Notes: generated by a model not told the origin, from the letters alone. Positions 1 through 58,207 are shown, counted from the stretch's first letter. The stretch is 64,000 nt of DNA from Bacteroidota bacterium (GCA_009786185.1 WQTS01000138.1:1652-65651), one strand, 5' to 3'. Numbers and translations: made by a program.

Positions 1-232
1 TTCCACTTTGCCGTAACCCACAGGAAGTTCATACCATTTTAATATGCCAACTCTCGGTTTGCTCATTTTAACTAAAGCCACATGCACATTGGCTATGAGC
101 TACCCTACCTGTGCATGTTGCAAGTTTGGTTTTTAACGGTGCGCCTGTTTTCCTTTTTTGAGGCATTGCCTTAACTCGGCTTTTCTTTTATTTGGCATGT
201 TACGGTTAAAAAACAAAACTTGCCGGTTTTAG
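1..232 (-). ncRNA. Conserved structured 5' leader element, copy A (runs off the left edge; its downstream gene is outside the window)
   Basis: Near-identical to 3153-3425 and 4941-5215 (ttccactttgcc...caggaa...ctcatttt...cctgtgc...ttttaacggtgcgcctgttt...aaaacttgcc); TACTTTTG promoter motif at 239-246 on minus strand. Confidence 0.65.
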
Positions 233-238
233 TCGCTG

Positions 239-246
239 CAAAAGTA
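239..246 (-). promoter_or_regulatory. Bacteroidetes sigma-A -7 element (TACTTTTG) upstream of leader copy A
   Basis: caaaagta on + strand = TAnnTTTG on minus, directly upstream of the conserved leader. Confidence 0.6.
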
Positions 247-260
247 GTAAAAAATCAAAC

Positions 261-295
261 ATAAATCCGATTTTTTGCTACAATAAATCCGATTT
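261..295. promoter_or_regulatory. Tandem 13-bp direct repeat ATAAATCCGATTT, candidate operator
   Basis: Identical copies at 261-273 and 283-295 (22-bp period) between leader A promoter and the divergent HTH gene. Confidence 0.5.
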
Positions 296-346: not shown

Positions 347-682
347 ATGAAAAAAAACATCGGGAAAATTATTGAAAAGCACGTAAAAGCTAAAGAGGGC
401 TTGTCTGTTGCTAAATTTGCCAAGCTTATTGATAAAGACAGAAGCACGACTTATGATATCTTTACACGGCAAAGTATTGATACGGAACTGTTGGAAAAAA
501 TAGGACAGGTTTTGGAATATGATTTCTTTCAAGAATTGTTGCACCCTGAAACGATACAAAAAATCATTCTTAAGAATTCAATTGTAAATAAAATTTACGT
601 AGAATTGGATATCTCTGAAAAAGATATTGAAAGCCTTGGAATTAAAGATAAAATTGTGCAAATTATAAAAAAGGAAGAATAA
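347..682 (+). CDS. XRE/Cro-type helix-turn-helix transcriptional regulator
   Basis: NIGKIIEK...GLSVAKFAKLIDKDRSTTYDIFTRQSIDTELLEKIGQVLEYDFF matches the Bacteroidetes XRE pattern (SIDTELL..I...L.YDFF). Confidence 0.8.
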   Translation: MKKNIGKIIEKHVKAKEGLSVAKFAKLIDKDRSTTYDIFTRQSIDTELLEKIGQVLEYDFFQELLHPETIQKIILKNSIVNKIYVELDISEKDIESLGIKDKIVQIIKKEE

Positions 683-901: not shown

Positions 902-1357
902 ATGCAAATCGAATACAACAATCTCTATATCCACTTCGTGTTTACAACCTTTAATAGAACTAAAATTATTCTTGAAAAACATCGTGAACGTATTGAAAAA
1001 TACATTACTGGAATTGTTAATAATAAAGGATGTCATTTGTATCGCATCTATGCTAATGCTGAACATATCCATTTTCTCGTTTCTCTTAATCCAAAAATTG
1101 ATACTGAAAGTTTAGCTACTATTGTTGCAGACAGTTCTGAAAGGTTTATTAATGAAAACAAATTATGTGCCGGATTTTTTAATTGGCAGCAGTCTTGTTC
1201 TGCATTTTCCGTGTCCAAAGGAGATGTAGAAAAAGTTTGTAAATATATTATGAATCAAAAAGAGCATCACCAATCTGCTGATTATGAACAAGAGCATGAA
1301 CAATTTCTAAAATTTTATCAACAGACAATTCAAATACAAAAAAAATCATGTAATTAG
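902..1357 (+). CDS. tnpA: IS200/IS605-family Y1 (HUH) transposase, TnpA/RAYT-like
   Basis: YIHFVFTT strand, HUH motif EHIHFL, FNWQ..SAFSVS, catalytic Tyr in KYIMNQKEHH. Confidence 0.85.
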   Translation: MQIEYNNLYIHFVFTTFNRTKIILEKHRERIEKYITGIVNNKGCHLYRIYANAEHIHFLVSLNPKIDTESLATIVADSSERFINENKLCAGFFNWQQSCSAFSVSKGDVEKVCKYIMNQKEHHQSADYEQEHEQFLKFYQQTIQIQKKSCN

Positions 1358-1698: not shown

Positions 1699-2874
1699 TT
1701 AAGACAATAACAAACATTCATCCCACTCCGGCTCCATTTCATAATGATAGCTAAGTAGCGCCAAGCCAATGCCGGAGATACCGGTTAGTAATCCGTAATC
1801 ATTTACCCATACAAATTCGCCATCCTGCGTGTCAAAAGCTTTATAACCGGCCAAACCGTCTTCAAAAGTAGCCATTTCTAAGGTTTGGTTAAACCAATAA
1901 TCTGCTGCGTTTTTAAATTCAGGTAATTTGGTGTTCCACCACATCCGGTAAAAAATATGCCCCATGCCGGCAGCGCCGTGACATAATCCTGCATCAGAAA
2001 CAAAATTATCTGCCAAGTTTCTTCTATGTGAAGCAGCATATAATAATATTTCTGTTGCCTTGTTTATCCAGGCATTCTCTTTCAAAATCGCACCTGCCTG
2101 ATATAAGGCGGAAGCAATTCCTAAATCACCGTAGCACCAACTTAAACGACTCTTATAAATGGTTGGGGTACTTTCAAGTGCAAGGCTGGAAAAATAGCTA
2201 CCGTATTTATCTTTGTCAATTTCTTGGGCAAGTATATATTGTACGGTTCCCCGCAATAATGTTTCTATTTTTTCTTTATCCAACCCCTCAATTTTATATA
2301 GCTTTGATAAAATTGCTACAATGCTTGCCATGCCATGCGACAGAGAAGTATTGTATACCGGTACGTTAGTATCCCCAAAAGGAGATATCCATTTCAAAGC
2401 TCCGTCTTCTTGCGGGGTACTTATTTTTGTTAAATCTTCTAAAAATTGATTCAACACTGCAATTAATTCTTTTCTCTTGGCAACTCTTTTAGTAAAATAT
2501 AGCGCTACGCCTACGCCGCCATGCAAGAAATCATAAGCGTTTTCTTGCATTGTTTTTTTAATCGCTTTTTCCAGATAGTCATCAAAATCTTCTAGAAAGG
2601 CATTTGTATCATAATTAATTATTCCTCTTTGACTTAAATATTCATATAACCAGCCAATGCCTGCTAATCCGTCGCAATGGGTTGCCGAAAAAACTTCACC
2701 GGTTAGTTTTTCTCCCAAAACTTGATGTAGATATGACAGCCTGTCTTGTGATATTTTTTTGTACGAAAACAGTTCACTGCACAAAAGTATTTGCCCGCCA
2801 AGCCCTGTTAACATACCTATTTTAGGGGCAATTTCAGATTTTAGAGTTTGGGCGATCTCGTCAATCTTTTTCAT
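1699..2874 (-). CDS. lanC: Lanthionine synthetase C-like cyclase, paralog 1
   Basis: GLAGIGW, DFLHGGVG, SLSHG (catalytic His), WCYGDLG and LCHG (Zn ligands), GLLTG..GIGL, C-terminal WDECLLLS. Confidence 0.92.
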   Translation of the reverse strand: MKKIDEIAQTLKSEIAPKIGMLTGLGGQILLCSELFSYKKISQDRLSYLHQVLGEKLTGEVFSATHCDGLAGIGWLYEYLSQRGIINYDTNAFLEDFDDYLEKAIKKTMQENAYDFLHGGVGVALYFTKRVAKRKELIAVLNQFLEDLTKISTPQEDGALKWISPFGDTNVPVYNTSLSHGMASIVAILSKLYKIEGLDKEKIETLLRGTVQYILAQEIDKDKYGSYFSSLALESTPTIYKSRLSWCYGDLGIASALYQAGAILKENAWINKATEILLYAASHRRNLADNFVSDAGLCHGAAGMGHIFYRMWWNTKLPEFKNAADYWFNQTLEMATFEDGLAGYKAFDTQDGEFVWVNDYGLLTGISGIGLALLSYHYEMEPEWDECLLLS

Positions 2875-2903
2875 TTTATTATCCTTATGCTATGCAATAT
2901 TTC

Positions 2904-2943
2904 AAAAAAAATGATGTTGCTCAATTTTTTTGAGCAACATCAT
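2904..2943 (-). terminator. Intrinsic terminator between precursor and lanC-1
   Basis: 14-bp stem atgatgttgctcaa/ttgagcaacatcat followed on minus strand by a U-tract. Confidence 0.75.
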
Positions 2944-2952
2944 GAGAAGTAA

Positions 2953-3129
2953 TTAGTCCACTTTTGTTGGAACCGGCGGCATACAGGTTGGGTACTGTAT
3001 AAGCGTACATATTTTGCCTGTAGCAGGGCACTCTGCAGTAGCGTAAGTTGTCATACCACCATAAATTTTACCCGGCTCATCTAATTGAGCAATAGCTTGT
3101 TTGTTTAATTGTAATTTTTTCATAGACAT
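2953..3129 (-). CDS. lanA: Class I lanthipeptide-type precursor, 58 aa (not in ORF track)
   Basis: Manual translation MSMKKLQLNKQAIAQLDEPGKIYGG-MTTYATAECPATGKICTLIQYPTCMPPVPTKVD*; same leader as 4732-4917 and 7739-7963; core has 3 Cys, 7 Thr. Confidence 0.88.
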   Translation of the reverse strand: MSMKKLQLNKQAIAQLDEPGKIYGGMTTYATAECPATGKICTLIQYPTCMPPVPTKVD

Positions 3130-3152
3130 TTAATTTTAAAATATAAAACTCA

Positions 3153-3425
3153 TTTCCACTTTGCCTAAGCCCGCAGGAAGTTCATATCATTTTAATATGA
3201 CAACTCTCGGTTTCTCATTTTAATTAAAACTACTTGCATATCGGTTATGAGCTATCCTACCTGTGCAGGTTGCAAATTTAGCTTTTAACGGTGCGCCTGT
3301 TTCCTCTTTTTTGAGGCGTTGCCTTAGCTCGGCTTTTCTTTCATTGGCATGTTACGGTGTAGAAGCAAAACTTGCCTGTTTTAATTTGCCCAAATTTAAG
3401 CGCTTGGGCAAGTATTTGTTGCAAC
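3153..3425 (-). ncRNA. Conserved structured 5' leader element, copy B
   Basis: Lies between TATCTTTG promoter (3430-3437) and precursor start; several stems with compensatory changes relative to other copies. Confidence 0.7.
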
Positions 3426-3429
3426 GTGG

Positions 3430-3437
3430 CAAAGATA
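3430..3437 (-). promoter_or_regulatory. -7 promoter element TATCTTTG upstream of leader B
   Basis: caaagata on + strand matches the TAnnTTTG consensus on minus. Confidence 0.6.
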
Positions 3438-3458
3438 AGAAAATATATTAAATCACAG

Positions 3459-4637
3459 TTAAGACAGTAATAAACATTCATCCCATGTGGGATCCGTTTC
3501 ATAATAATAGGTAAATAGTGCTAAGCCGATGCCAATTATACCTTCTAACAACCCATAATTATTTATCCAAACTTCGTTCTTATCTTGTATGCTTAAAATT
3601 TTAAAGCCGGCTAAGCCATCTTCAAAAGTGGCTTTCTTTAAGGTTTGTTCAAACCAATAATCTGCGGCATCTTTAAATTCAGGCAATTTTGTATTCCACC
3701 ACATCCGATAAAAAATATGCCCTACGCCGGCAGTGCCATGACACAATGCTACATCTATAACATTATTTTCTTCTAAATTTCGTCTTTGGGTGGCGGCAAA
3801 TAAAAATATTTCTAAAGCTTTCTCTACCCAGGCGCTTTCTCGCAAAACTGTACCTGCCTGATATAAAGTGGAGGCAATGCCCAAATCGCCGTAGCACCAT
3901 GCCAATCTGCTTTTAGTAATGAAAGGCATGCTTTCTAATGCAAAACTGGTGAAGTAACTTCCATATTTGTCTTTATCAATTTCCTGTGCAAGAATATATT
4001 GTACAGCCCCTCGCAATAGCATTTCCGTTTTTTCTTTATCAATTCCTTCTATTTCATACAGTTTCGATAGTATAGAAATAATACTCGACATGCCATGCGA
4101 TAGTGCAATATTATACCCAGGCCCTGTTATATGTGTGGTCAAAAGAGAGCTCCATTTTATAGCTCCATCTTCTTGCTTGATACTTAATTTTTCTAAATCT
4201 TCTAAAAATTGATTTAATACGGCAACCAGCTCTTTTTTCTTCTTTACTCTTTTAGAAAAATAGAGTACAATGCCCACGCCGCCGTGCAGAAAATCATATT
4301 CGCCTTTTAACATGAAGTTTTTAAGCGCTTCTGCCAAACAGTCATCAAACGCTTCCAAAAGTATGTTAGTATCGTAGTCTATCATCTTTTTTTGGCTTAA
4401 ATATTCATATAACCAACCTATGCCCGCTAAGCCGGAAGCATGCGTAAAAGGAAGAACTTCTTCCGCTAATTTTTCTTCTAAAATATTGTGTAAATGCAAC
4501 AACCAATTTTGTGAGACTTTTTTGTGTTTAAACAATTCGCTGCAAATAAGAAGTTGCCCACCAAGCCCCGACAATAATTCCGTATCGGGTACTATTTCAG
4601 ATGTTAAAATCTGAGTTATCTCGTCTATTTTTTTCAT
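3459..4637 (-). CDS. lanC: Lanthionine synthetase C-like cyclase, paralog 2 (start reassigned to MKKIDEI)
   Basis: ALSHG, WCYGDLG, LCHG, WDECLLLS; start set by alignment to paralogs; the longer ORF extension runs into the terminator hairpin. Confidence 0.92.
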   Translation of the reverse strand: MKKIDEITQILTSEIVPDTELLSGLGGQLLICSELFKHKKVSQNWLLHLHNILEEKLAEEVLPFTHASGLAGIGWLYEYLSQKKMIDYDTNILLEAFDDCLAEALKNFMLKGEYDFLHGGVGIVLYFSKRVKKKKELVAVLNQFLEDLEKLSIKQEDGAIKWSSLLTTHITGPGYNIALSHGMSSIISILSKLYEIEGIDKEKTEMLLRGAVQYILAQEIDKDKYGSYFTSFALESMPFITKSRLAWCYGDLGIASTLYQAGTVLRESAWVEKALEIFLFAATQRRNLEENNVIDVALCHGTAGVGHIFYRMWWNTKLPEFKDAADYWFEQTLKKATFEDGLAGFKILSIQDKNEVWINNYGLLEGIIGIGLALFTYYYETDPTWDECLLLS

Positions 4638-4669
4638 TATTTTCTTAACATATACTACCATCATTACAG

Positions 4670-4720
4670 TAAAAATGAAAATTTGTCTTTTAGCACACAC
4701 TGTGTGCTAAAAGACAAATT
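4670..4720 (-). terminator. Long hairpin/terminator between precursor and lanC-2
   Basis: ~19-bp stem aatttgtcttttagcacac / gtgtgctaaaagacaaatt, U-rich tail on minus strand. Confidence 0.7.
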
Positions 4721-4731
4721 CCTTCTAAAAA

Positions 4732-4917
4732 TCAAACAGTACACCCTACTGTTTTCGTGGTTACTGGGATTACACAGCACGCAGGAGTGTCAGTTAGAGG
4801 ACATGGCTTATAACTTTGGTCTGAGGCTATTGTTTTATCAGTTCCTCCATAAATTCTACCCGGCTCATTCAACTGAGCAATCGTTTGTTTGTTTAATTGT
4901 AATTTTTTCATAGACAT
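4732..4917 (-). CDS. lanA: Class I lanthipeptide-type precursor, 61 aa
   Basis: LQLNKQTIAQL (LxLxKx5L) leader ending IYGG; core TDKTIASDQSYKPCPLTDTPACCVIPVTTKTVGCTV has 4 Cys, 8 Thr, 2 Ser. Confidence 0.88.
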   Translation of the reverse strand: MSMKKLQLNKQTIAQLNEPGRIYGGTDKTIASDQSYKPCPLTDTPACCVIPVTTKTVGCTV

Positions 4918-4940
4918 TTAATTTTAAAATACAAAACTTG

Positions 4941-5215
4941 TTTCCACTTTGCCGTAGCCCGCAGGAAATGCACATTGCTTTAATGTGACAACGCTCGGGT
5001 TGCTCATTTTAATCAAAACTACTTGCACATTGGCTATAAGCTATCCTACCTGTGCATGTTGCAAGTTTGGTTTTTAACGGTGCGCCTGTTTTCCTCTTTT
5101 TTGAGGCATTGCCTTAGCTCGGTTTTTCTTTTATTGGCATGTTACGGTTAAGAACAAAACTTGCCGGTTTTAATTTGCCCAAATTTAAGTGCTTGGGCAG
5201 GCACTTGTTGCAACG
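4941..5215 (-). ncRNA. Conserved structured 5' leader element, copy C
   Basis: Aligns over its full length with copy B; stems conserved, C(UACG)G tetraloop near the 3' end. Confidence 0.7.
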
Positions 5216-5254
5216 GAGTAAAATTAAGAAAATATATTTAATATTAAATCACAG

Positions 5255-6442
5255 TTAAGACAATAGCAAGCATTCATCCCAAGCAGGATCCATTTCATAG
5301 TAATAGGTAAGCATTGCCAAATTGATTCCGGCGATGCCTTCTAAAAATTCGTATTTGTTTATCCATCTTGGTTCTCCTTCCGGCATTTGCATTTCAAAGG
5401 CTTTAAAGCCGGCAACCCCATCTTTAAATGTAGCCATTTTTAATGTTTCTTGAAACCAATAATCTGCAGCATCTTTAAACTCAGGCAATTTTGTATTCCA
5501 CCACATACGATAAAAAATATGCCCAATGCCGGCAGTACCGTGACATAATCCTGCATCTTTAACCAAATCATCCTCTAAATTTTGTCTCATAGTAGCAGCA
5601 AATATGAATATTTCCAATGCTTTATCTATCCAAACATTTTCTCTTAGCGCTTTACCCGCCTGAAATAATACGGAAGCAATTCCTAAATCGCCGTAACACC
5701 ACGCTAAACGACTTTTACTAATATGGGAAGTGCTTTCTAATGCATAGTATGTGAAGTAACTACCATATTTATTTTTGTCAATCTCTTGGGCAAGGATATA
5801 TTGTACAGCTCCTCGTAACAATTTTTCTGTTTTTTCCTTATCAATTCCTTCTATTTTATACAGTTTTGACAGTATTGAAACAATACTCGACATACCATGC
5901 GATAAGGAGATATTATATACTTGATTATTAGTATGTCTGAGCAAAAAAGAGCGCCATTTTATGGCTTCATCTTCTTGTTTGATACTTATGTGTTCTAAAT
6001 CTTCTACAAACTGAGCCAGTACCGGTATAAGTTCCTTTTTCTTTGCAACTCTTTTGGTAAAATAGAGTACAACGCCTACCCCGCCATGTAAAAAATCGTA
6101 GTTATTTTCTAACATAAAGTTTTTTAGCGTTTTCTCAAGATAAATATCAGGATCTTCTAAAATAATATTTGTATCGTAATTAATTATTTTTCTTTGACTT
6201 AAATATTCATAAAGCCAGCCAATACCGGCTAAACCGCCACAATGGGTAAAAAGAAAATCTTCGTTAGATAGTTTTTCTTCCAAAATATTATGCAAGTGCG
6301 ATAACCAATCGTGCGATACTTTATTTTGTAAAAACAGTTCGCTGCAAGTGAGTATTTGTCCGCCAATTCCGGATAATAAGCCTAAACCGGAAATAGTTTC
6401 AGAGGCTAATATTTGGGTGAGTTCATCTATCTTTTTTTTCAT
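5255..6442 (-). CDS. lanC: Lanthionine synthetase C-like cyclase, paralog 3
   Basis: SLSHG, WCYGDLG, LCHG, WDECLLLS motifs. Confidence 0.92.
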   Translation of the reverse strand: MKKKIDELTQILASETISGLGLLSGIGGQILTCSELFLQNKVSHDWLSHLHNILEEKLSNEDFLFTHCGGLAGIGWLYEYLSQRKIINYDTNIILEDPDIYLEKTLKNFMLENNYDFLHGGVGVVLYFTKRVAKKKELIPVLAQFVEDLEHISIKQEDEAIKWRSFLLRHTNNQVYNISLSHGMSSIVSILSKLYKIEGIDKEKTEKLLRGAVQYILAQEIDKNKYGSYFTYYALESTSHISKSRLAWCYGDLGIASVLFQAGKALRENVWIDKALEIFIFAATMRQNLEDDLVKDAGLCHGTAGIGHIFYRMWWNTKLPEFKDAADYWFQETLKMATFKDGVAGFKAFEMQMPEGEPRWINKYEFLEGIAGINLAMLTYYYEMDPAWDECLLLS

Positions 6443-6501
6443 TGTTTAATTTTCAATTAAGTATTCTCTTAAGTCTATTAATTACGCAAATCGCTCTAAA
6501 A

Positions 6502-7527
6502 TCATGGTTCAGACAATACTAAGCGAAAACTAAAAATGTCGCTAACAACTGGTCCCATTCCACCAACGTATTCATGATGCCAACCCTCACGAGCCGAAAT
6601 ACGGCAGGTTACCGTAGAATAGAAGGCACCACCACCACGAACTATACGTGGAATAATATTTTCTATGGTGTACTGTGGATTTGTCTGCGGAACATTAGTA
6701 TAAATTCTGTACCACCCATCTAGGCACCACTCCTTTGCATTTCCACTCATATCGTAAATACCCAATTCATTTGGTTTTTTTGTTCCCACCGGATGGAGTT
6801 TCCTATTGCTATTATCACGATGCCAAGCCACTTCATCAACATTATTGCTGCCGCTGTATTTGTATCTCATACTTTGGTTGCCTCCACGTGCCGCATATTC
6901 CCACTCCGCTTCCGTAGGTAAACGATAGGCTTTACCGGTAGTTAGCCTCAATTCTCTAATAAATTTTTGTGCATCATCCCAACTCACTCCGTGAACTGGC
7001 ATATCATCTCCAAAATAAAAACTTGGATTGCTGCCCATAAGAGATATCCACTGTTTTTGTGTAATAGGATATATGGCTATTTTAAAACTACTTAATGTAA
7101 CCGGATGTGCCGGAAGTTCCTGCTCATAACATTCATCATCGCCATCATTGCAACCCATTATAAATGTTCCACCTTCAACCAGTACCATTTTTGGTTCGAT
7201 GGAAGGATCGTAAACTGTTACAATAGATCTAGCTGTTTTGTTTCCATCTTGAGTAGTAGCAGTAATTGTAGTTTTACCAAATGAAATGGCGGTTATTGTG
7301 CCGTTATGCACTGTTGCTACATTGTTATTGCTACTTTCCCAACTCACCTTTTTATTGGCAGCATTTTCAGGTAGTATAATGGCTGCTAAGATTTCCGTTT
7401 TTCCAATTCCACCAATGAATAAAGTGCTTGGTTCAAGTACAATACTTGTAACAGATTCTTTTTTACAAGAAACTGCAACAATCAACAACAACGCTGCAAT
7501 AAACAATCTTAAAATTGTGCTTTTCAT
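6502..7527 (-). CDS. Lipoprotein with Ig-like (Big_2) domain and FGE/SUMF1-type domain
   Basis: Lipobox AVS-C; Big_2 motif KVSWESSNNNVATV..GTITA...GKTTITATTQDG; FGE motifs RLPTEAEWEYAARGG, PNELGIYDMSGN..EW, RIVRGG, FRLV. Confidence 0.85.
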   Translation of the reverse strand: MKSTILRLFIAALLLIVAVSCKKESVTSIVLEPSTLFIGGIGKTEILAAIILPENAANKKVSWESSNNNVATVHNGTITAISFGKTTITATTQDGNKTARSIVTVYDPSIEPKMVLVEGGTFIMGCNDGDDECYEQELPAHPVTLSSFKIAIYPITQKQWISLMGSNPSFYFGDDMPVHGVSWDDAQKFIRELRLTTGKAYRLPTEAEWEYAARGGNQSMRYKYSGSNNVDEVAWHRDNSNRKLHPVGTKKPNELGIYDMSGNAKEWCLDGWYRIYTNVPQTNPQYTIENIIPRIVRGGGAFYSTVTCRISAREGWHHEYVGGMGPVVSDIFSFRLVLSEP

Positions 7528-7594
7528 GATAAATAGGGTTCATTGTGTTTTTATATTATTTAAAAAAATTGATCATAACTGTCTGGTTTTTAAA

Positions 7595-7693
7595 AACTCT
7601 GATAACTCTGATTGAGCGTGATAACCTTTAAAAAAGCATAAAAACAATGCATTAATAATTAGAGATCTGCTAAATCAGTATTATCAGAGTTCT
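7595..7693. repeat. Dispersed palindromic (REP/MITE-like) element, 'aactctgat' family
   Basis: Ends aactctgataactctgattgagc ... aatcagtattatcagagtt; related element at 22903-22996. Confidence 0.65.
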
Positions 7694-7738
7694 CATTGAT
7701 AGGCTATTAAACTAACCTCTTAATACAGTTTTAAGTAA

Positions 7739-7963
7739 TTACCGAGCAGCAGTCGGACATGCATAAGTAGGCCATTCACAGTAACAAGTACAATTTGTTT
7801 GGGCTGTTTCTATGCCACAGTAATTTTGGGTAGGCTTTACACACGCTGCTACTCCCCACACTTGCAGTACAGTTGTTTTATATCCATGAGCTTCACCTCC
7901 GTGAATTTTGTTCGGTTCGTTTAACCGCGCAATCGTTTGTTTGTTTAATTGTAATTTTTTCAT
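7739..7963 (-). CDS. lanA: Class I lanthipeptide-type precursor, 74 aa (start reassigned to MKKLQLN)
   Basis: MKKLQLNKQTIARLNEPNKIHGG leader; core EAHGYKTTVLQVWGVAACVKPTQNYCGIETAQTNCTCYCEWPTYACPTAAR has 6 Cys, 8 Thr. Confidence 0.88.
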   Translation of the reverse strand: MKKLQLNKQTIARLNEPNKIHGGEAHGYKTTVLQVWGVAACVKPTQNYCGIETAQTNCTCYCEWPTYACPTAAR

Positions 7964-7992
7964 AGTATTGATTTTAAAAAAATATACTCTAA

Positions 7993-8107
7993 TTTCCACT
8001 TTGCCAAAGCCCGCAGGAAATTCATATCATTCTGATATGACAACCCTCGGATTCCTCATTTTAACTAAACCTTAACGCACATCAGCTATGAGGCATCTTA
8101 CCTGTGC
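7993..8107 (-). ncRNA. Conserved leader element, copy D (3' module only)
   Basis: Matches the ~115 nt nearest the precursor in copies A-C; homology ends after cctgtgc at 8107. Confidence 0.65.
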
Positions 8108-8829
8108 TAATTCGCGGTTTTCGTTTGCCTGAATTTTAAACGCATCAGGCAATGCAATAATTTGGTATAATTTCTGTTTATTTGCATCCTGAGGTGCAGA
8201 TTTGCAGGGAAAGTATTAAGTGTTTTTGCAAAAGATAAATACTTCCCTGCGGGGCACCTTGGTTATTGCCGGTACGGTCGGAGCACGTCTCGTACCAACT
8301 TAGCGTATTCGAAATTGTGTTTTTTCAAAAATCCACATATTTATAATGAATAAATAAGCGAATAGAGAAATAGAAGAGAGGAAAGATTTTATAATCAACA
8401 CAGATTGCGCTTCATGCAATAAGAACTTATCTGCAAAAATACTATGCAAGTATGCAATGGTTTTATTAAACGTATCGGCTGCTTTCATGCGGTCGAATAT
8501 ATATGTAACAAAATCGCGGGCAAGATACGAAAAAACATCTTCAAAATGATTTATGAACATTTTTTTGTTATCGTTTTTGTTTTCAGTATATTATATATTG
8601 CTTTTTGGGAATAAAATGAATATACTGTTATTCTTGCAACAATTTGTTGGCTAACTTTTGCAGCAAATAGAATTTTTACAGTATTTCGCAGCACCACGAA
8701 ATAAATAAAAATATTATGAATAAAAAATAAGCCCTTAAAAAGGTGAACAAGCAATCTATTTTTTTCTATTTTTGCCACGCAAAATTACATAGGTATAAAA
8801 ACGTATATTTAATTTAATATCAGCATATT

Positions 8830-10389
8830 ATGACAATGCAAGAAAAAATCAATGAGCTTTTAAAACTGCGAGAAACTGCAAGATTGGGAGGCGGTGAAAA
8901 ACGTATTGAGAAACAACACGCCCAGGGCAAATTCACAGCACGCGAGCGTATCCTCATGTTTTTAGATGAGGGTAGTTTCGAAGAGTTTGATATGTTTGTT
9001 ACCCATCGCTGTACAAATTTTGGTATGGAAAAAGAAAAATATTTATCCGATGGCGTGGTAACAGGATATGGCACCGTGGAAGGTCGTTTGGTATTTGTGT
9101 ATTCGCAAGACTTTACCATATTCGGAGGCTCGCTTTCGGAAACAGTTTCCAATAAAATTTGTAAAGTGTTGGATCAAGCCATGAAAATGGGCGCTCCGGT
9201 AGTAGGCTTCAACGATTCTGGTGGTGCGCGTATTCAAGAAGGCGTAAATAGTTTGGCAGGGTATTCCGAAATTTTCCAACGCAATATTTTGGCTTCGGGC
9301 GTTATTCCGCAAATTTCCGCTATTTTCGGTCCTTGTGCCGGCGGCGCTGTGTATTCGCCTGCGCTTACCGATTTTATCATGATGGTGAAAAATACCAGTT
9401 ACATGTTTGTTACCGGTCCGAAAGTAGTGAAAACGGTTACTAATGAGGATGTTACCGTGGAAGATTTGGGCGGCGCTATGATGCACTCCTCAAAATCGGG
9501 TGTAGCGCATTTTGCGGTAGATAACGAAGAGATCGGCATTGCGCAAATTCGCAAATTGTTGAGCTATGTACCTTCTAACAATATGGAAGAAGCTCCGTTT
9601 AAACCCACAAACGACCCAATTAATCGTTTAGAAGATACTTTAAATCAAATTATTCCCGACAGTCCCAACAAGCCTTATGATGTTAAAGATGTTATTTTAA
9701 GTATTGTAGATGACGGTGGTTTTTTTGAAGTTCATGAAAATTATGCAAAAAACATCGTGGTAGGTTTTGCCCGTTTCAATGGAATGTCGGTGGGAATTGT
9801 TGCCAACCAGCCCAAATATTTAGCCGGTGTTTTAGACATCAACTCTTCTCGCAAAGGAGCGCGCTTTATTCGTTTTTGCGATGCCTTTAATATTCCGATA
9901 GTTACGTTGATAGATGTGCCCGGTTTCTTGCCCGGAACCCAACAAGAATACGGCGCATTAATTCTTCACGGCGCTAAACTATTGTACGCGTATGGCGAAG
10001 CTACCGTTCCAAAAGTAACGGTTATTTTAAGGAAAAACTATGGCGGCGCATATTGCGTAATGAGTTCCAAACATTTACGTGGAGATATTAATTACGCTTG
10101 GCCCTCTGCCGAAATTGCAGTGATGGGTGAAAAAGGCGCTGTAGAAATTTTAAGCGGAAGAGAAATCGCCGCTATTGAAGACCCTGAAAAACGCGCAGAA
10201 TTTATCGCTGAGAAAGAAACCGAATACCGCACGGCATTTGCCAATCCGTATATCGCAGCACGTTATGGTTATATTGATGATGTGATTGAACCGCGCAACA
10301 CTCGTTTCCGAGTAATTCGTGCGTTAGAATCATTGAAAAACAAACGCTTGGAAAATCCGGCGAAAAAACACGATAATCTCCCGTTATAA
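8830..10389 (+). CDS. mmdA: Methylmalonyl-CoA decarboxylase alpha / acyl-CoA carboxylase carboxyltransferase
   Basis: [42 protein letters not shown]; followed by an OadG-family gene. Confidence 0.9.
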
Positions 10390-10419
10390 ATTCAAAATTC
10401 AAAACTCAAAATTTAATTT

Positions 10420-10788
10420 ATGGACGTAAAATATGGTGTATTAACAGTAATTGTTGCAACTTTGGTTGTATTTACGATACTATTCATTTCTTTAATAATG
10501 CTGAAATCTTTCGGAAAATGGTTAACCGAAACGAGGAGTAAATATTTAGAACGTAAAGAAAAAAAGCTTGAATTTAAAGCAGCGCAAGCTGCCTCTGCTG
10601 CACTTGATGAAGAAGCAAAAGAGCTTGGCAACAGTGAAGAATTGGCCGCTATTGCCATGGCATTGCATCTTTATTTAAACGCCAACAGAGATGAAGAGAG
10701 TGAAGTTATTACTTTCGATACGTTGGCGCCGCGCTATTCGCCGTGGGCTCAAAAAGGCTTGGTAATGAAGCGAGTTGTGAAGAAATAA
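10420..10788 (+). CDS. OadG/MmdD family decarboxylase subunit
   Basis: N-terminal TM helix, EELAAIAMALHLY and SPW motif; directly downstream of mmdA. Confidence 0.8.
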   Translation: MDVKYGVLTVIVATLVVFTILFISLIMLKSFGKWLTETRSKYLERKEKKLEFKAAQAASAALDEEAKELGNSEELAAIAMALHLYLNANRDEESEVITFDTLAPRYSPWAQKGLVMKRVVKK

Positions 10789-58042: not shown

Positions 58043-58207
58043 AATGATTTAATGTGTTTTTTAATAAGCCTACTCTTTAGGATTTTCGGCATCCTCCAAA
58101 ATTAACAAGCGCAAAAATACACTTTATAATATACATAGAGATTTTTTTTGAAAAAATGTGGCTTAATCAAATATTTCTGCTACTTTCGCGTTTTTCGTGA
58201 AATACCT

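Follow-up and report, generated by a model that had tools for sequence, protein, structure and literature searches.

Tandem precursor-cyclase cassettes for class I lanthipeptides in a termite-gut Bacteroidales genome with a single split dehydratase

The 64,000-nt stretch of DNA examined here (the window, C138:1652-65651) comes from the genome of an uncultured termite-gut Bacteroidales bacterium (G000; 2.84 Mb in 144 contigs, 96% complete and 1.9% (1.89%) contaminated). Its minus strand carries an array of three lanthipeptide precursors, three intact genes for LanC cyclases and four copies of a conserved upstream element. This array is an unusual variant of class I lanthipeptide organisation, and the window probably holds three of at least eight modular cassettes, each with a LanC of its own, that share one LanB dehydratase and one LanT exporter. 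The cassettes in the window are called units 1, 2 and 3, and unit 4 is the precursor just left of the window on the same contig; C-numbers denote contigs of G000, other G-numbers other genomes and L-numbers loci. The array is made up of the following features, with positions counted along the window, lengths in amino acids (aa), and the core motif of the upstream element labelled R1.

1..270, minus strand: upstream element of unit 4, with the conserved copy at 1-243 (repeat families D4 and D7; nhmmer hit C138:1921-1626); the precursor it belongs to is at C138:1359-1622, outside the window to the left
59-180, minus strand: R1 core RNA motif of the unit 4 element (covariance model hit C138:1710-1831, 138.6 bits)
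1699..2874, minus strand: LanC1, the unit 1 cyclase, 391 aa (PF05147, E 1.6e-38; catalytic residues present)
2911..2943, minus strand: terminator-like hairpin of 14 bp with a T-run in the gap between precursor 1 and LanC1 (fold -20 kcal/mol, z -2.77)
2953..3123, minus strand: precursor 1, with a 23-aa leader and a 33-aa core (3 Cys, 7 Thr, 0 Ser)
3124..3424, minus strand: upstream element of unit 1 (R1 core 3211-3333, C138:4862-4984, 134.1 bits)
3459..4637, minus strand: LanC2, the unit 2 cyclase (PF05147, E 4.1e-37; alignment)
4679..4721, minus strand: terminator-like hairpin of 20 bp with a T-run in the gap between precursor 2 and LanC2 (fold z -4.95; none of 200 shuffles equally stable)
4732..4911, minus strand: precursor 2, with leader and a 36-aa core (4 Cys, 8 Thr, 2 Ser)
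4912..5212, minus strand: upstream element of unit 2 (R1 core 5000-5123, C138:6651-6774, 139 bits)
5255..6442, minus strand: LanC3, the unit 3 cyclase, 395 aa (PF05147, E 2.4e-39; 82-85% identical to the LanCs of C34 and C89)
6502..7527, minus strand: lipoprotein of unit 3 with Big_2 and FGE-sulfatase-fold domains, 341 aa (PF03781, E 3e-44; PF02368, E 1.6e-14)
7739..7963, minus strand: precursor 3, with leader and a 51-aa core (6 Cys, 8 Thr, 0 Ser)
7964..8264, minus strand: upstream element of unit 3, its 5' half diverged (nhmmer score 198.8; R1 core 8052-8166, 78.7 bits)

The original prediction, made from the sequence alone, had described three units of leader RNA, precursor, hairpin and LanC with a fourth leader at the left edge. 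The precursors, the LanC genes and all four elements stand, while the hairpin is found in only two of the three units and unit 3 has an additional gene, its order being precursor, lipoprotein, LanC. In units 1 and 2 the precursor stop is followed directly by a stem containing G+C and a U-run, as in an intrinsic terminator or attenuator; downstream of precursor 3 no convincing hairpin was seen (fold z -1.0 and 0.1). LanC2 was taken to begin at the conserved MKKIDEI; a GTG start listed for it at 4700 falls within the hairpin. A terminator scan gave 15 sites against 6.0 +/- 2.8 in shuffles. Nisin-type operons carry an attenuator hairpin after lanA, and the strong hairpins with U-runs between precursor and enzyme gene in units 1 and 2 resemble it, unlike the gap after precursor 3. 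The repeats are long (138-300 nt).

The peptides themselves are much as predicted. All three window precursors have near-identical 23-aa leaders of the MKKLQLNKQxIAxLxEPxxIxGG type, and their cores of 33, 36 and 51 aa with 3, 4 and 6 Cys are Thr-rich and nearly free of Ser (7-8 Thr and 0-2 Ser each). A homologue search with precursor 3 returned only precursor 3 itself (one of three candidates). A six-frame motif scan of the whole genome gave 11 hits, nine of which have the MKKLQLNK...GG leader, and the LxLxKx5L...GG motif can be read in all nine of these leaders. Four of the nine precursors lie on C138 and one each on C87, C140, C100, C134 and C92; their cores contain 3-7 Cys, 4-10 Thr and 0-2 Ser, a composition suited to class I precursors. 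The use of this leader as a mark of Bacteroidetes class I lanthipeptides also holds, in that leader and split LanB together fit the group described in the accessible text of Walker et al. (2020; PMC7268733).

The original prediction had included neither the lipoprotein gene nor the spread of the cassette family over the genome. In total, G000 contains nine precursors, eight LanCs and eight cassette lipoproteins on seven contigs, and the usual order within a cassette is precursor, lipoprotein with Big_2 and FGE fold, LanC. The eight LANC_like (PF05147) matches fall on six contigs. Set against these, the genome has one Lant_dehydr_N (PF04738) match and one Lant_dehydr_C (PF14028) gene split over two contig ends, which bears out the earlier claim that the dehydratase is shared. 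There is no LanB within the window; both of its parts are found at the level of the genome, on C34 and C126. C34 encodes the N-terminal LanB protein after a LanC that is truncated by the contig end, and on C126 the LanB C-terminal protein is followed by a Peptidase_C39 (E 6.1e-30) with an ATP-binding cassette (ABC) transporter, HlyD and OAD_beta. The leader motif and the C39 protease transporter on C126 are the features by which the LxLxKx5L/GG subgroup of Bacteroidetes is recognised in the accessible part of that survey (PMC7268733). Contig ends connect several of these pieces. At its left end, each of C138 and C87 shares 65 nt with the right ends of C34 and C89; C34 overlaps C126 by 77 nt and C134 overlaps C100 by 97 nt. 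When these joins are taken into account, eight of the nine precursors have a LanC downstream, two of the eight through contig-end joins. The single LanB of G000 would act on the window precursors as well.

Parts of a methylmalonyl-CoA decarboxylase operon are split over three contigs, each adjoining lanthipeptide genes, as judged from open reading frames (ORFs) only except for OAD_beta. A carboxyltransferase and a small membrane subunit lie at window 8830-10788 (plus strand), OAD_beta at C126:4651-5979 and a biotin-carrier-like ORF at C87:7027-7467. In the one-contig genome G329, the whole methylmalonyl-CoA decarboxylase operon stands beside an array.

From these components, a working scheme for the cassettes can be proposed. 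Each cassette would be expressed from a conserved promoter region through a ~300-nt, probably structured, 5' leader, with an attenuator-like hairpin behind LanA in units 1 and 2. LanA would join the LxLxKx5L...GG leader to a cassette-specific Thr/Cys-rich core. The single split LanB (glutamylation and elimination proteins) would read the common leader and dehydrate Thr/Ser in all nine precursors, after which the thioether rings would be made by the LanC encoded beside each precursor. The single C39-peptidase ABC transporter would cleave after GG and export the peptide with HlyD, so that LanB and LanT would serve all cassettes. In most units, the periplasmic lipoprotein with Big_2 and FGE fold, not an FGE enzyme, may bind the cognate peptide, for example as an immunity protein. 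It is plausible that each LanC is specialised for the adjoining core rather than merely co-expressed with it. A more far-reaching version is put forward only tentatively: eight substrate-dedicated cyclases, each setting the ring topology in its own cassette, around a central LanB/LanT that reads the common leader, in plug-in, copyable modules with a riboregulated leader and a cognate peptide-binding lipoprotein, co-regulated with an unrelated radical-SAM peptide locus through an undescribed leader RNA.

The LanC proteins appear fit for catalysis. As had been predicted, LanC1-3 keep the catalytic His (SHG) and the Zn ligands (WCYG, CHG) while differing elsewhere: the three motifs are invariant at an overall identity of 68-72%. 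The eight paralogs of G000 are 67-85% identical to one another. In an alignment to NisC (2g02), the equivalents of H212, C284, C330 and H331, together with those of the Trp, Tyr and Arg, are kept in all ten LanCs of the clade (eight from G000 and two from the same-genus genome G006), and the equivalent of Asp141 is D in nine and E in one. Over all 28 pairs of LanCs, the ratio of nonsynonymous to synonymous divergence (dN/dS) is 0.10-0.19 at a synonymous divergence (dS) of 0.46-1.70; the eight LanCs are under purifying selection. With catalytic residues intact and such ratios, none of them looks inactive. Variation among the paralogs is highest at residues 156-180 of LanC3, a loop right before the catalytic His of SHG, and at residues 346-365, where the corresponding ratio for windows of the alignment (pN/pS) reaches 0.5-0.74.

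The history of the family points to copying of whole cassettes. In a tree of 99 LanCs, the eight from G000 and the two from G006 form one clade, specific to the genus, with full support in the Shimodaira-Hasegawa-like approximate likelihood ratio test (SH-aLRT 100), and LanC3 forms a subclade with the LanCs of C34 and C89 (SH-aLRT 99). For units 3, 4 and 5, the groupings of LanC, lipoprotein and core agree. Because the subclade pairs with three related cores and their lipoproteins, whole cassettes were copied, as the original prediction had held. Its further claim, that cyclase and core had diverged in concert, finds no such support. Within G000, the identities of LanC and core are correlated (r 0.55-0.57, Mantel p about 0.006-0.009), a correlation carried by the recently duplicated units 3, 4 and 5. 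The sequence comparisons, then, speak for joint duplication of cassettes and do not show co-adaptation of LanC and core.

Several observations weigh against the reading of the array as cassettes with shared LanB/LanT and a LanC each. Over 18 distinct units from metagenomes and the window, LanC similarity and core similarity are uncorrelated (r = 0.09, p = 0.2), and in no 20-codon window of the LanC alignment does pN/pS exceed 1; adaptive co-divergence is therefore not shown. The precursor on C134 has no LanC of its own. It is followed by two lipoprotein genes, and its core is 68% identical to that of the next unit, on C100. On the 3.9-kb contig L014, four different precursors accompany one LanC; related cyclases may therefore handle several cores. 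LanC and LanM enzymes characterised to date are known to accept many substrates. The LanB is not on the window contig, and C138 and C87 fit the LanC-LanB contig C34 equally well, so that either could be its continuation. Nor does synteny separate C138 from C87 as the neighbour of C34, since methylmalonyl-CoA decarboxylase genes lie near both, in the case of C87 as judged by ORFs alone. The lipoprotein is missing from units 1 and 2, and among the ~18 FGE-fold genes of G000 (20 matches) most lie outside cassettes. Finally, none of the five public runs that contain the stretch is an RNA run.

It is possible, if on balance doubtful, that the LanC paralogs are interchangeable, a cyclase being kept through the copying of units or its supply being matched by co-expression while the core sets the ring topology. 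The missing correlation over 18 units, the lack of any window with pN/pS above 1, the C134 precursor and L014 all agree with this, and both NisC and ProcM are tolerant of varied substrates. It is opposed by the persistence of eight old paralogs at low dN/dS: as their dS shows them to be old, redundant copies would be expected to have decayed. The clustering of variation beside the catalytic His likewise speaks against equivalent enzymes, as does the independent origin of like arrays in several lineages.

Other Bacteroidales, too, have arrays with several LanCs next to one LanB, some of them on long contigs. Among 40 relatives, LANC_like matches occur in five, with at most two each; of 401 genomes sampled from the order, 36 have a LanC, with no more than four scored per genome. 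In G006, a lipoprotein and a LanC are followed by three intervening genes and then by precursor, LanC, LanB, LanB_C and LanT. The loci L026/L027, on one 3.06-Mb contig, show repeated precursor, CarbopepD_reg protein and LanC ahead of LanB, LanT and HlyD, and a similar array is found in G329. G178 has four LanCs next to a fused LanB, and L034, L052, L070 and L072 have two LanCs each. The gene between precursor and LanC varies: G000 and G006 have an FGE-fold lipoprotein there, L027 has a CarbopepD_reg protein, and L016 and L013 have a Peptidase_S41. A scan of metagenomes yielded 54 loci, most of whose LanCs are 67-76% identical to the query, including a new array with three LanC hits (L160). Of the 31 precursors at the metagenome loci, three are those of G000 itself and one is that of G006; a LanC lies downstream of 26 of the 31. 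In L100 (G329:C1), two ORFs at 7900-9800 lie between LanC fragments and are possibly an insertion that broke a LanC.

A further proposal, that some of the extra LanCs are not cyclases here and instead add or remove thiols at dehydroamino acids in the manner of LanCL, or serve in self-protection, is highly improbable. LanCL enzymes do add and remove glutathione at dehydroamino acids (accessible text of PMC9993889), and LanC-like genes without LanB are described as common in Bacteroidales (available portion of PMC10352776). However, according to the same portion, the stand-alone LanC-like proteins of Bacteroidales, mined in genomes without a LanB partner for them, lack the Zn and catalytic motifs (PMC10352776), unlike all eight LanCs of G000. 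Each LanC here also stands directly behind a precursor with a LanB-type leader, and all fall in one clade with LanB-adjacent LanCs.

Least probable of all is an artefact of assembly or binning, such as a collapse of strains with one LanC each, even though the 144 contigs break at LanC and lipoprotein repeats: paralogs with dS of at least 0.46 are not strain variants, contamination is low, satellite cassettes lie on contigs with housekeeping genes, and comparable arrays exist on the 3.06-Mb contig and in one-contig G329. Public data bear on the same point. Five termite-gut metagenome runs from four studies contain the stretch, three of them at 0.94 of sampled words, and one of the five may be the sample behind the window assembly. 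Contig pieces from four termite-gut runs cover an 11-kb stretch at 100% identity, X1 and X3 having depth in 30 of 30 bins. Single public pieces bridge the junctions from core through LanC and from LanC through the next upstream element (records 2, 3, 4 and 8), and since they do so at 100% identity, the tandem arrangement is solid. The block order is taken from the original assembly, because the public contigs are broken at the leader's first ~30 nt, which are identical.

In the lipoprotein of the window, a signal peptide with an AVSC lipobox can be read from the sequence, and its seven paralogs are 49-69% identical to the window copy, the C-terminal ~60 residues being the most variable. Its closest solved relative is TvpA, the Treponema denticola variable protein (2y3c; E 1.7e-23 alone and 1.2e-41 with profile A7), compared with 5e-32 for formylglycine-generating enzyme (FGE). 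TvpA is a ligand-binding variable protein. Both TvpA and the FGEs share the FGE-sulfatase fold with the cassette lipoproteins. The FGE catalytic pair CxxxxC is absent from the latter, with a gap at the motif in the profile alignment to FGE 6s07; the C-terminal part of alignment A7 has no invariant Cys column, and one of the seven paralogs has no Cys there at all. The fold is thus present without the catalytic Cys pair, and an identity as FGE/SUMF1 was rejected. No link between a diversity-generating retroelement and the TvpA-like lipoproteins was found in G000, where the one RVT_1 gene lies on C142 beside no cassette. Nor does the protein appear to belong to the LanI-type immunity lipoproteins NisI and SpaI: Pfam finds only Big_2 and FGE-sulfatase and no LanI family, and a similar function is a hypothesis only. 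Taken together, these features suggest that the cassette lipoprotein is possibly a periplasmic peptide-binding protein and a candidate immunity protein.

The conserved element of ~300 nt precedes each precursor and is 88-90% identical between three pairs of units in G000; LanC coding DNA is 72-80% identical. A profile built from nine copies finds ten places in the genome. The tenth, diverged copy lies on C123 before a different Cys-rich peptide with a GG leader, followed by two radical-SAM/SPASM genes. This second locus for ribosomally made peptides that are modified after translation (RiPPs; C123:1435-4703, L116) comprises the 53-aa GG-leader Cys-rich peptide at 1705-1866, the two radical-SAM/SPASM genes and a large exported protein. 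Searched with a covariance model of the 124-nt R1 core, 151 genomes of the family yield 19 instances, which are spread over seven genomes from two genera; four of the seven R1-bearing genomes are same-genus genomes with no LANC_like match. In 15 of the 19 cases, a short Cys-rich ORF follows within ~100 nt, usually one that has a GG leader. The element also precedes non-lanthipeptide GG-leader peptides, in two genera.

The element is a candidate 5' leader RNA that is probably structured. In the model-fitted alignment, 10 of 15 pairs change on both sides, and 85% of cells pair compared with 22-43% when partners are slid, values reached by 0 of 500 shuffles; this structure was derived from the same sequences that were used to score it, and helix 2 is poorly aligned. 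Helices 3 and 4 together show 131 Watson-Crick cells, 12 with wobble on the sense strand and 3 with wobble only on the antisense. When RNAalifold was applied to a 17-sequence MAFFT alignment, it gave one helix only, the other helices having been set by hand and being less secure. Rfam 15 has no family for the element, as judged by gathering scores on the whole window and by one copy searched at E up to 1; the sole match of the element at E<=1, RUF1, scores 18.1 bits against a gathering score of 70 and is at chance level.

Transcriptional control of the cassettes may involve proteins encoded next to them. In five of the nine units, a small divergent gene lies upstream, and four of these genes match Xre-type helix-turn-helix (HTH) families (HTH_3/HTH_19/HTH_26; on C140, C100, C92 and C87). 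The promoter-proximal part of the elements (e.g., window 3380-3440 and 5170-5230, minus strand) contains a GTTGCAAC palindrome, and a 9-nt inverted repeat, TTTGCCCAA ... TTGGGCAAA, surrounds a TAnnTTTG-like box in the upstream elements. Palindrome and inverted repeat are both present in six of the nine units and could form an operator for the divergently encoded Xre-type proteins. Beside unit 4, the following features lie on the plus strand or as repeats.

347..682, plus strand: 111-aa ORF divergent from precursor 4 (0 Pfam families), at the position of the Xre-type HTH genes in four other units
902..1357, plus strand: IS200-like Y1 transposase between units 1 and 4 (PF01797, E 3.5e-19)
681-722 and 1537-1578: 42-nt direct repeats around the transposase (repeat D9, 98% identical)

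Comparison with known systems shows which parts of this organisation are familiar. Bacteroidetes class I systems are described, in the accessible text of the survey, as having LxLxKx5L/GG leaders, C39 proteases and split LanBs, with 62% of class I precursors alone in their cluster (Walker et al., 2020; PMC7268733). Pinensin-type clusters, known from Chitinophaga pinensis, resemble G000 in the LxLxKx5L...GG leader, the C39-peptidase transporter and the split LanB (same text, PMC7268733). The C. pinensis cluster is given two LanAs, one LanB and one LanC in the available part of PMC3091789, whereas G000 has eight LanCs, mostly away from LanB, and its cassettes also contain the lipoprotein gene and the conserved leader RNA. 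Several LanCs per cluster or genome were noted as early as 2010 for Frankia EAN1pec cluster I (two LanCs), Spirosoma linguale and Microscilla marina, according to the same part (Marsh et al., PMC3091789). There, Spirosoma has five LanCs and four LanBs, a near one-to-one ratio, in contrast to the eight LanCs, one LanB and one leader family of G000; the text available on these cases describes no repeated precursor-LanC cassette or shared leader (PMC3091789). The cluster of Tumebacillus flagellatus, with ten distinct LanAs, is like G000 in placing many cores on one system, but is reported as one cluster, and the accessible text does not mention multiple LanCs (PMC7268733).

A different solution to the same problem is found in the class II prochlorosins, where one promiscuous bifunctional synthetase, ProcM, makes all rings on many ProcA precursors. 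As in G000, a library of conserved leaders and hypervariable cores is served by shared enzymes from partly scattered loci; G000, by contrast, shares dehydration while nearly every precursor has a cyclase gene of its own. The literature searched, which did not extend to subscription papers and supplements, gave no account of precursor-LanC cassettes that are repeated and share one LanB, and the supplementary tables of Walker et al. might list multi-LanC clusters.

A long-standing question is how lanthipeptide cyclases match each attacking Cys to a dehydroamino acid, and the best-studied enzymes are strikingly promiscuous. Eight paralogs, with different cores and a common leader, dehydratase and exporter, provide a natural matrix of cognate and non-cognate pairs in which it can be asked whether enzyme or substrate sets the topology, and the variable loops beside the catalytic His are candidates for swaps. 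The locus further suggests that termite-gut Bacteroidales have many peptides still to be explored, given the precursors and metagenome loci counted above (31 and 54). Two other parts are new in this setting, the cassettes' FGE-fold lipoprotein and a candidate regulatory RNA common to different RiPP classes.

A few minor observations concern the surroundings of these genes. In the C140 unit, the FGE-fold lipoprotein and the LanC are separated by an additional lipoprotein-like ORF of 141 aa that matches no Pfam family (C140:19290-19715, L096:2391-2816). On a contig of Candidatus Limimorpha (L013, 3701-6181), an outer-membrane protein resembling TonB-dependent receptors (CarbopepD_reg, Plug, OMP_b-brl_3) comes after the LanC, and outer-membrane proteins recur next to RiPP genes in these Bacteroidales. 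The sole Rfam match at gathering score in the window is a DUF805b RNA (RF02914) at 58067-58099 on the minus strand, with 39.8 bits.

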